Below are positions 27,451-27,889 of a stretch of 64,000 nucleotides of DNA, in pieces. Every line of letters begins with the position of its first letter. The first letter of the stretch is position 1. The notes beneath the pieces were generated by a model. That model saw nothing but the letters and a program-made list of their open reading frames with translations, made no database searches and was not told the origin of the DNA. The position numbers and the translations under genes were made by a program. Location of the stretch: the NCBI GenBank assembly GCA_021683455.1, contig GCA_021683455.1_3051.1, one strand, 5' to 3'. Source of the stretch: a phage.

Positions 27451-27889
27451 TCATTTCTTCTTGTGTTGAATATTCCAAGGTGGGTTAAACAGTTTAATGA
27501 ATAGCGGCTCCTCTAGATCAATCGTTGCGATTGTCATTGTACCTAACTCATTTGTCATAGAAAGATTAAAACATTGGCGGGCGTAAAATTCAACTTTGCT
27601 TCCTTCCTTCCTTTAGCGCAGCATGAATTAATGCAGATTTAGTAGAATCAGACGTTTTGTCTTTACGGTTAATAGCAGTTCTATAATAGTTTATTCTTTT
27701 ACGTAAATTTTTAGTTTTTCCAATATAAACAAGCTCATCATTTATAGCAATAGCATAAATTACGTTATACTTGTTTGGAATAGATAATTGTTTTATACTT
27801 CCGTTGTCGTCTAATTCTAGCTCAGTATATTTAATAAATGAATATTCTGTTGCAATTTCTTTCATAATAAAATGGGCCTTGCGGCCCAC
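27451..27889 (-). pseudogene. denA: denA (endonuclease II, GIY-YIG) disrupted by +4 frameshift
   Basis: N-terminal part MKEIATEY..VYIGKTKNLRKRINYY stops at 27590; the C-terminal part [18 protein letters not shown] is open in the adjacent frame to 27451; break lies in a (CTTC)3 run at 27599-27610. Confidence 0.7.
27874..27887. terminator. Stem-loop GGGCC-UUGC-GGCCC between nrdB stop and denA start
   Basis: 5-bp GC stem with tetraloop. Confidence 0.45.

Follow-up and report, generated by a model that had tools for sequence, protein, structure and literature searches.

A four-nucleotide repeat gain splits the endonuclease II gene denA of a T4-like phage and is found on several haplotypes

The stretch of phage DNA analysed here, a window of 64,000 nt, is a segment of a Tequatrovirus (T4-like) genome which extends from uvsW to gene 39 and beyond. 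The gene denA, which encodes endonuclease II (EndoII), is located between nrdB (27893-29071) and rnlA (gene 63, 26274-27398), and thus its T4-type genomic position is retained. T4 EndoII (DenA) is a tetrameric GIY-YIG nuclease which starts the breakdown of host DNA and makes the first cuts in cytosine-containing DNA. The features of the locus and the evidence on which each of them is based are listed in Table 1.

Table 1. Features of the denA locus, with positions in the 64,000-nt window
Feature	Position	Strand	Evidence
denA (endonuclease II), whole locus; frameshifted pseudogene, very probably a null allele	27451..27865	-	Synteny and tblastn against the KMB42 and F25 annotations; repaired translation against 2WSH 1-136
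denA 5' frame: residues 1-87, then RKQS and premature TGA; 91 aa	27590..27865	-	GIY-YIG motif Y47-I48-G49, R57
denA +1-frame segment, S88-K136 and stop	27451..27600	-	100% to KMB42 DenA residues 85-136; aligned with 2WSH
Tetranucleotide tract: plus strand CTTCCTTCCTTCCTT, sense strand AAGGAAGGAAGGAAG; 3.75 units, 15 nt	27599..27613		15-locus alignment
nrdB-denA intergenic leader, intact: AAGGAG SD-like sequence, GGGCC-GCAA-GGCCC hairpin and T-run	27866..27892	-	Sequence, RNA fold

The start codon ATG is located at 27865-27863, and frame 0 reads MKEIAT...ALKEG(87)-RKQS until the TGA at 27592-27590. This early end of the GIY-YIG ORF, with the stop after ..ALKEG-RKQS at 27590, had already been noticed in a previous reading of the window made from its letters (the sequence-only reading). 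The adjacent +1 frame is free of stops from 27612 on and reads (KEG)SKVEFYARQC...NIQHKKK until the TGA at 27453-27451; for a run of 50 codons without stops, the probability in shuffled local sequence is approximately 0.018. Here the sequence-only reading was right in that the shifted frame is open down to 27451, but its number of 46 codons has to be corrected, since the peptide which it quoted comprises 49 aa (S88-K136). The native part of DenA ends at G87, and therefore the break is at S88. The displaced segment contains R95, C97, the catalytic Mg-binding E118 (codon 27510-27508), P127 and W129, and no in-frame initiation gets to it. Deletion of the positions 27607-27610 results in a 411-nt ORF starting at ATG 27865 and encoding 136 aa, in line with what had been predicted for the removal of one repeat unit. 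A functional enzyme needs a single ORF linking the GIY-YIG N-terminal half to E118, and in the window the two parts are in different frames. Since the E118 codon is in the +1 frame after the premature TGA, the locus is the denA gene, but very probably in the form of a null allele.

The break is located in a short tandem repeat. On the plus strand, the positions 27599-27610 read CTTCCTTCCTTC and belong to the 15-nt tract with a period of four. In an alignment of 15 sequences of the locus, four additional bases within the AAGG tract are the sole length difference: the tract of the relatives has 2.75 units (11 nt), and the extra unit corresponds to the frameshift. Thus, the gain of a 4-nt unit in the CTTC tract, suggested earlier as the cause of the break, was borne out by the alignment. 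Every other period-4 tract of the window is shorter, and in shuffled sequence 0.035 tracts of 15 nt or more are expected per window. Tracts with the ancestral length of 11 nt are present at chance frequency (5 observed, 5.1 expected).

The assignment to EndoII does not depend on the GIY-YIG motif alone. In a tblastn search with the intact DenA of vB-Eco-KMB42 (KMB42), residues 1-89 of the query matched in frame -1 (98.9%) and residues 85-136 in frame -2 (100%), and the overlap between the two matches is the duplicated KEG. The repaired 136-aa translation was aligned with the structure of T4 EndoII (PDB 2WSH, 2WSH_A) over residues 1-136, end to end, with E=1.2e-86. Both halves thus correspond to intact T-even EndoII, and the proposals that the gene is denA and that the shifted frame encodes the genuine C-terminus of EndoII were correct. 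The 91-aa fragment itself matched the Pfam GIY-YIG domain (PF01541) with 28.2 bits, at a gathering cut-off of 22.6.

Directly upstream of the denA ATG, the intergenic leader contains a hairpin with a predicted folding energy of -18 kcal/mol (z -4.66). A terminator is annotated at this leader in some of the GenBank relatives. Our scan for simple terminator patterns did not flag the hairpin despite its stable fold. The SD-like sequence AAGGAG is partly inside the extended stem. The predicted fold suggests that the hairpin may act as a terminator and/or in the translational control of denA.

Several other regions of the window were inspected. Both td (31921-32778) and nrdB are uninterrupted in the window, with no group I introns, while in F25, the closest relative with respect to the denA haplotype, td is split by an intron with an endonuclease gene. 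On the plus strand, a 230-aa ORF at 1282-1974 is HNH-like at its N-terminus (…THHIIPRCMGG…) and carries NUMOD3 motifs (PF07460, E=7.6e-14). It is located between uvsW and uvsW.1, overlaps the uvsW stop and is absent from the KMB42 reference. It probably represents an inserted free-standing homing endonuclease gene and harbours a 14-nt (TCAA)3.5 tract at 1747-1760. On the minus strand, two tandem paralogues of alt-like ADP-ribosyltransferase genes (10984-13038 and 13045-15135) with 41% mutual identity are present, as in KMB42. The region 55550-56050 (minus strand) upstream of denB is variable in comparison to F25: an F25 ORF of 101 aa matches in its first 33 residues only (76%). The gp38 adhesin (48113-48886, plus strand) has 99% identity to that of KMB42 and 69% to that of F25. 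Since gp38 is KMB42-like and denA is F25-like, the window has a mosaic ancestry.

The conserved catalytic glutamate of EndoII, which coordinates Mg, is E118, and the exchange E118A abolishes catalysis (PMC2764454). Missense mutations of escapers from the defence system Metis affect V90/E91, R95, E118, P127 and W129 (10.1101/2025.11.05.686725), all of which are within the segment displaced here; for this comparison, an offset of eight codons (upstream GTG start) was subtracted from the Metis T4 numbering, a conversion which we inferred and checked against the codon identities. We also considered separate translation of a C-terminal fragment from the internal ATG at 27558 and rejected it: this ATG is not preceded by a Shine-Dalgarno sequence, and the resulting 35-aa piece would lack the GIY-YIG half. 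Since E118 and the Metis missense sites are in the lost segment and internal initiation lacks such a signal, the 91-aa product is predicted to be catalytically dead.

Inactivation of denA has a known biological context, which the sequence-only reading did not foresee. In three preprints from 2025-26, escape of T-even phages from abortive infection systems sensing the breakdown of the host genome by the phage was due to inactivation of denA, mostly by frameshifts. Metis senses m6dAMP, and each of the ten T4 and T6 escapers had a mutation in denA (10.1101/2025.11.05.686725). PANGU is a nucleoid-protein sensor, and its T4 escapers carry loss-of-function mutations in denA (10.64898/2026.04.06.716658). 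PUA-Cal-HAD is triggered by m6dAMP, and denA frameshifts were found in all T2 escapers (bioRxiv 10.64898/2026.01.15.699771). One of the escapers selected in the laboratory with PUA-Cal-HAD, T2m2, carries in denA (KMC23_gp183) the change 133503 G>GCTTC, described as 'frameshift at S88' (10.64898/2026.01.15.699771, Table S3). Position 133503 of the T2 RefSeq sequence (NC_054931.1) is the G of tttG|cttccttccttt, and the mutant sequence tttgcttccttccttccttt corresponds base for base to positions 27595-27614 of the window.

We compared 67 reference genes of KMB42 and 34 of vB_Eco_F25 with the window and found that denA alone is split across two frames. This frame census was performed with reference proteins; the nearest records in a collection of 50,697 phage records show 96-97% identity over 25 kb. 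The gene denB, encoding endonuclease IV, is intact in the window (98.4% identity). Further, a Logan contig of the run SRR17762126 contains the insertion, encodes exactly the 91-aa product and has 100% identity to the window over 17,063 nt. Judged by this identity, it is evidently an independent re-assembly of the same phage. The sequence-only reading had left open whether the break is a null allele or an assembly error. The independent assemblies, the fact that denA is the sole split gene and the T2 escaper all favour the first, and we are confident, short of certainty, that the frameshift represents a genuine loss-of-function allele of denA.

The same truncated product was also found on other haplotypes. 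The scaffold ERZ28577814 from an ENA metagenome encodes exactly the 91-aa product and has 93.8% identity to the window over 10.9 kb, with 10 SNPs in the 701 nt around denA. A Logan contig of SRR27217509, again with the exact product, is 97.1% identical to the window without gaps. In both cases the genes adjoining denA are of normal length. In addition, an A39V variant of the truncated product with the same RKQS tail is present in the protein collection. For two of the carrier haplotypes, wild-type counterparts exist: the wild-type phages F25 and T-01 have the 701-nt haplotype of the window minus the 4 nt, and the haplotype of SRR27217509, with 7 differences from the window in 548 positions, is that of the wild-type Shigella phage ESh25 apart from the same 4 nt. 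The simplest reading of these wild-type twins is that the insertions are recent and independent. Thus, the tract is shown to be a recurrent slippage site, with the same duplication on at least three haplotypes and in the T2 laboratory escaper. A single insertion could in principle also have spread between haplotypes by recombination of short tracts (less than approximately 250 nt) instead of having recurred.

The allele was not found in any of 499 GenBank Tequatrovirus records, in every one of which the best match of a 71-nt probe was 67/71. Given this and its presence on several haplotypes, the allele is rare but recurrent. It was also absent from the five IMG/VR and the five JGI metagenome contigs that matched the wild-type sequence, and from the GTDB genome contigs, among which there were no wild-type matches; with so few matches, these collections give no usable denominator. 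Exact look-ups in the protein collection gave 771 contigs with a protein identical to the repaired DenA and 214 with the T4 variant, compared with about half a dozen for the truncated forms. This corresponds to an allele frequency of roughly the order of 0.5% of contigs. The main cluster of 136-aa DenA proteins at 90% identity is represented by a 374-aa RnlA and was missed by the homology search; presumably a fused denA-rnlA gene call bridges the two, and the grouping is a database artefact. Other frameshift truncations of Tequatrovirus denA in public assemblies include a 1-nt deletion in CTAAAGG, next to the AAGG/CTTC tract, and an additional A at codon 63, which is present at 3001-3240 of a 93.7-kb Logan contig of ERR4138720. 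It appears that these other denA frameshifts in public assemblies fit a dispensable gene which is repeatedly lost.

How could such an allele arise and persist? Streisinger-type slipped-strand mispairing at the short tandem repeat during replication would add one unit. The extra unit in the (AAGG)2.75 tract shifts the frame after G87 and leads to termination four codons further on, so that the last 49 residues, among them the catalytic Mg-binding E118, are not made. The breakdown of the host DNA would then be absent or slow, since EndoIV (denB) and the other nucleases of the pathway, although intact, would lack the initiating nicks. As a consequence, fewer host-derived nucleotides would be recycled, at a cost in fitness. 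At the same time, less m6dAMP and less damage of the nucleoid would leave Metis, PANGU and PUA-Cal-HAD untriggered. Based on the analogy to the laboratory escapers, the allele was plausibly selected as an escape from immunity which senses host-genome degradation. It probably persists because a host with such a defence favoured it or at least allowed it to remain, and on hosts lacking the defence a cost is to be expected. Each of the carriers may also have originated in the laboratory or have been selected while being propagated.

Selection is not needed if the duplication at the hotspot simply became fixed by chance in a dispensable gene, for example in a plaque bottleneck or during passage in rich medium. 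We give this explanation a substantial chance, although not an even one. Mutants in denA are viable and the gene is dispensable in rich medium, different denA frameshifts such as the additional A at codon 63 occur sporadically in public assemblies, and the allele is rare; moreover, selection by defence is deduced from the laboratory escapers of other phages. On the other hand, precisely this change was obtained under defence selection in T2m2, and no other gene of the window is broken. If the allele is indeed real but unselected, it is uninformative with respect to host defences.

It is also tempting to speculate that selection acts in both directions and that the (AAGG)n tract in codons 85-88 is a reversible contingency (phase-variation) switch in Tequatrovirus populations: gain of a unit would silence EndoII and bring the phage past the degradation sensors, and its loss would restore nucleotide scavenging where no defence is present. 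The scattered (CTTC)3 alleles of wild genomes would then record moments of a continuing arms race, and they would not be dead-end pseudogenes. The recurrence of the gain (at least three haplotypes, two of them with wild-type twins, and the laboratory T2 mutant) and the opposing pressures of fitness cost and defence escape fit such a toggle, and a tract of 3.75 units should slip back at least as readily. However, 2.75 to 3.75 units are far below the size of classical tetranucleotide contingency loci, the mutations of the laboratory escapers are spread over many further denA sites, and the frequency of the ancestral 11-nt tract does not exceed chance. In view of the small size of the tract and of an ancestral length which chance alone would give, the idea is attractive but unsupported; we consider it improbable that the tract toggles EndoII, and likewise improbable that gain and loss serve sensor evasion and scavenging, respectively.

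Returning to the reading which we prefer, a genuine allele that was plausibly selected as an escape, two explanations which deny the loss of EndoII can be dealt with briefly. A consensus error of the slippage type, made during sequencing or assembly, is conceivable at a short tandem repeat whose extra unit is present in none of the 499 GenBank relatives, but it is very unlikely here, as the insertion was recovered in the window-identical Logan contig and, on other haplotypes, in two further datasets from different pipelines, the gain of a 4-nt unit is not a typical platform error, and the identical variant was read-called in T2, together with a phenotype. Assembly error was rejected as the leading explanation in view of the independent assemblies and of the rest of the window, which is intact, with no second frameshift detected among the approximately 100 genes compared.

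Still less credible is expression of the split gene by recoding, in which the wild-type protein would be restored exactly by a hop of +4 (net +1): the geometry permits it (the peptidyl-tRNA on AAG, GAA or GGA can re-pair perfectly 4 nt downstream, for example from GGA 27607-27605 to GGA 27603-27601 followed by AGC for S88, the rare AGG codon after GGA might promote the hop, and the frameshift window is open between TAA 27615-27613 and TGA 27592-27590), but no recognised stimulatory element was seen and all of the 499 relatives have a single ORF, none of them the two-frame arrangement. Trace leakiness by rare +4 tRNA hopping across the duplicated unit might exist. The escape of T2m2, whose sequence is identical here, from a defence which requires DenA activity argues that any read-through would be functionally negligible.

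The gene, the structure of its product, the null phenotype and even the exact mutation are already known. The modest novelty is that several backgrounds carry the allele, both among wild or deposited genomes and among metagenome assemblies. This is of interest for several reasons. The same 4-nt duplication on different backgrounds suggests that the escape route, and hence these defences, also act outside the laboratory. The tract offers a specific mutational hotspot for screening, at a locus which annotators would label as two fragments or as 'hypothetical protein'. Further, a T4-like phage which does not initiate host DNA breakdown may leave the DNA of the host and of plasmids more intact, and higher transduction or DNA release has been connected with the loss of nucleases that degrade host DNA. 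This risk is relevant for the choice of T4-like phages for therapy.

In comparison to T4 EndoII as represented by 2WSH, the order nrdB-denA-rnlA and the GIY-YIG motif are common to both loci, and the repaired protein differs only at A82 (S in T4) and at the engineered E118A of the structure. In contrast to T4, the ORF of the window is broken after G87, with E118 and the rest of the C-terminal half out of frame. As in slipped-strand (Streisinger) hotspots and bacterial tetranucleotide contingency loci, the gain of a unit inside an ORF switches the frame and recurs; the denA tract differs by its very small size from the bacterial contingency loci, which are long, hypermutable and reversible. Null mutants in denA have been laboratory tools for decades. 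The Metis (T4, T6) and PANGU (T4) escapers and the classical T4 mutant nd28 have lesions of the same class, frameshift or null, in the same gene, and the phenotype expected for the window is the same: the host genome is not broken down and the phage is still viable. Their lesions are at other positions (frameshifts at K25, N31 and K76, deletions of 28 bp and 1 bp, a change in the RBS, missense mutations), and the Metis and PANGU escapers arose under defined selection, unlike the allele of the window. The closest counterpart is T2m2, which has the identical mutation at the identical site. The backbones of the two phages differ, and a SNP is present beside the tract, with C in the window and A in T2 at position 27617. 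This flanking SNP and the overall divergence imply that the window is not T2; apparently it originates from a different, natural phage. Thus, an allele that was selected in the laboratory in T2m2 is present in the window in a deposited or wild sequence which does not come from a reported selection experiment.
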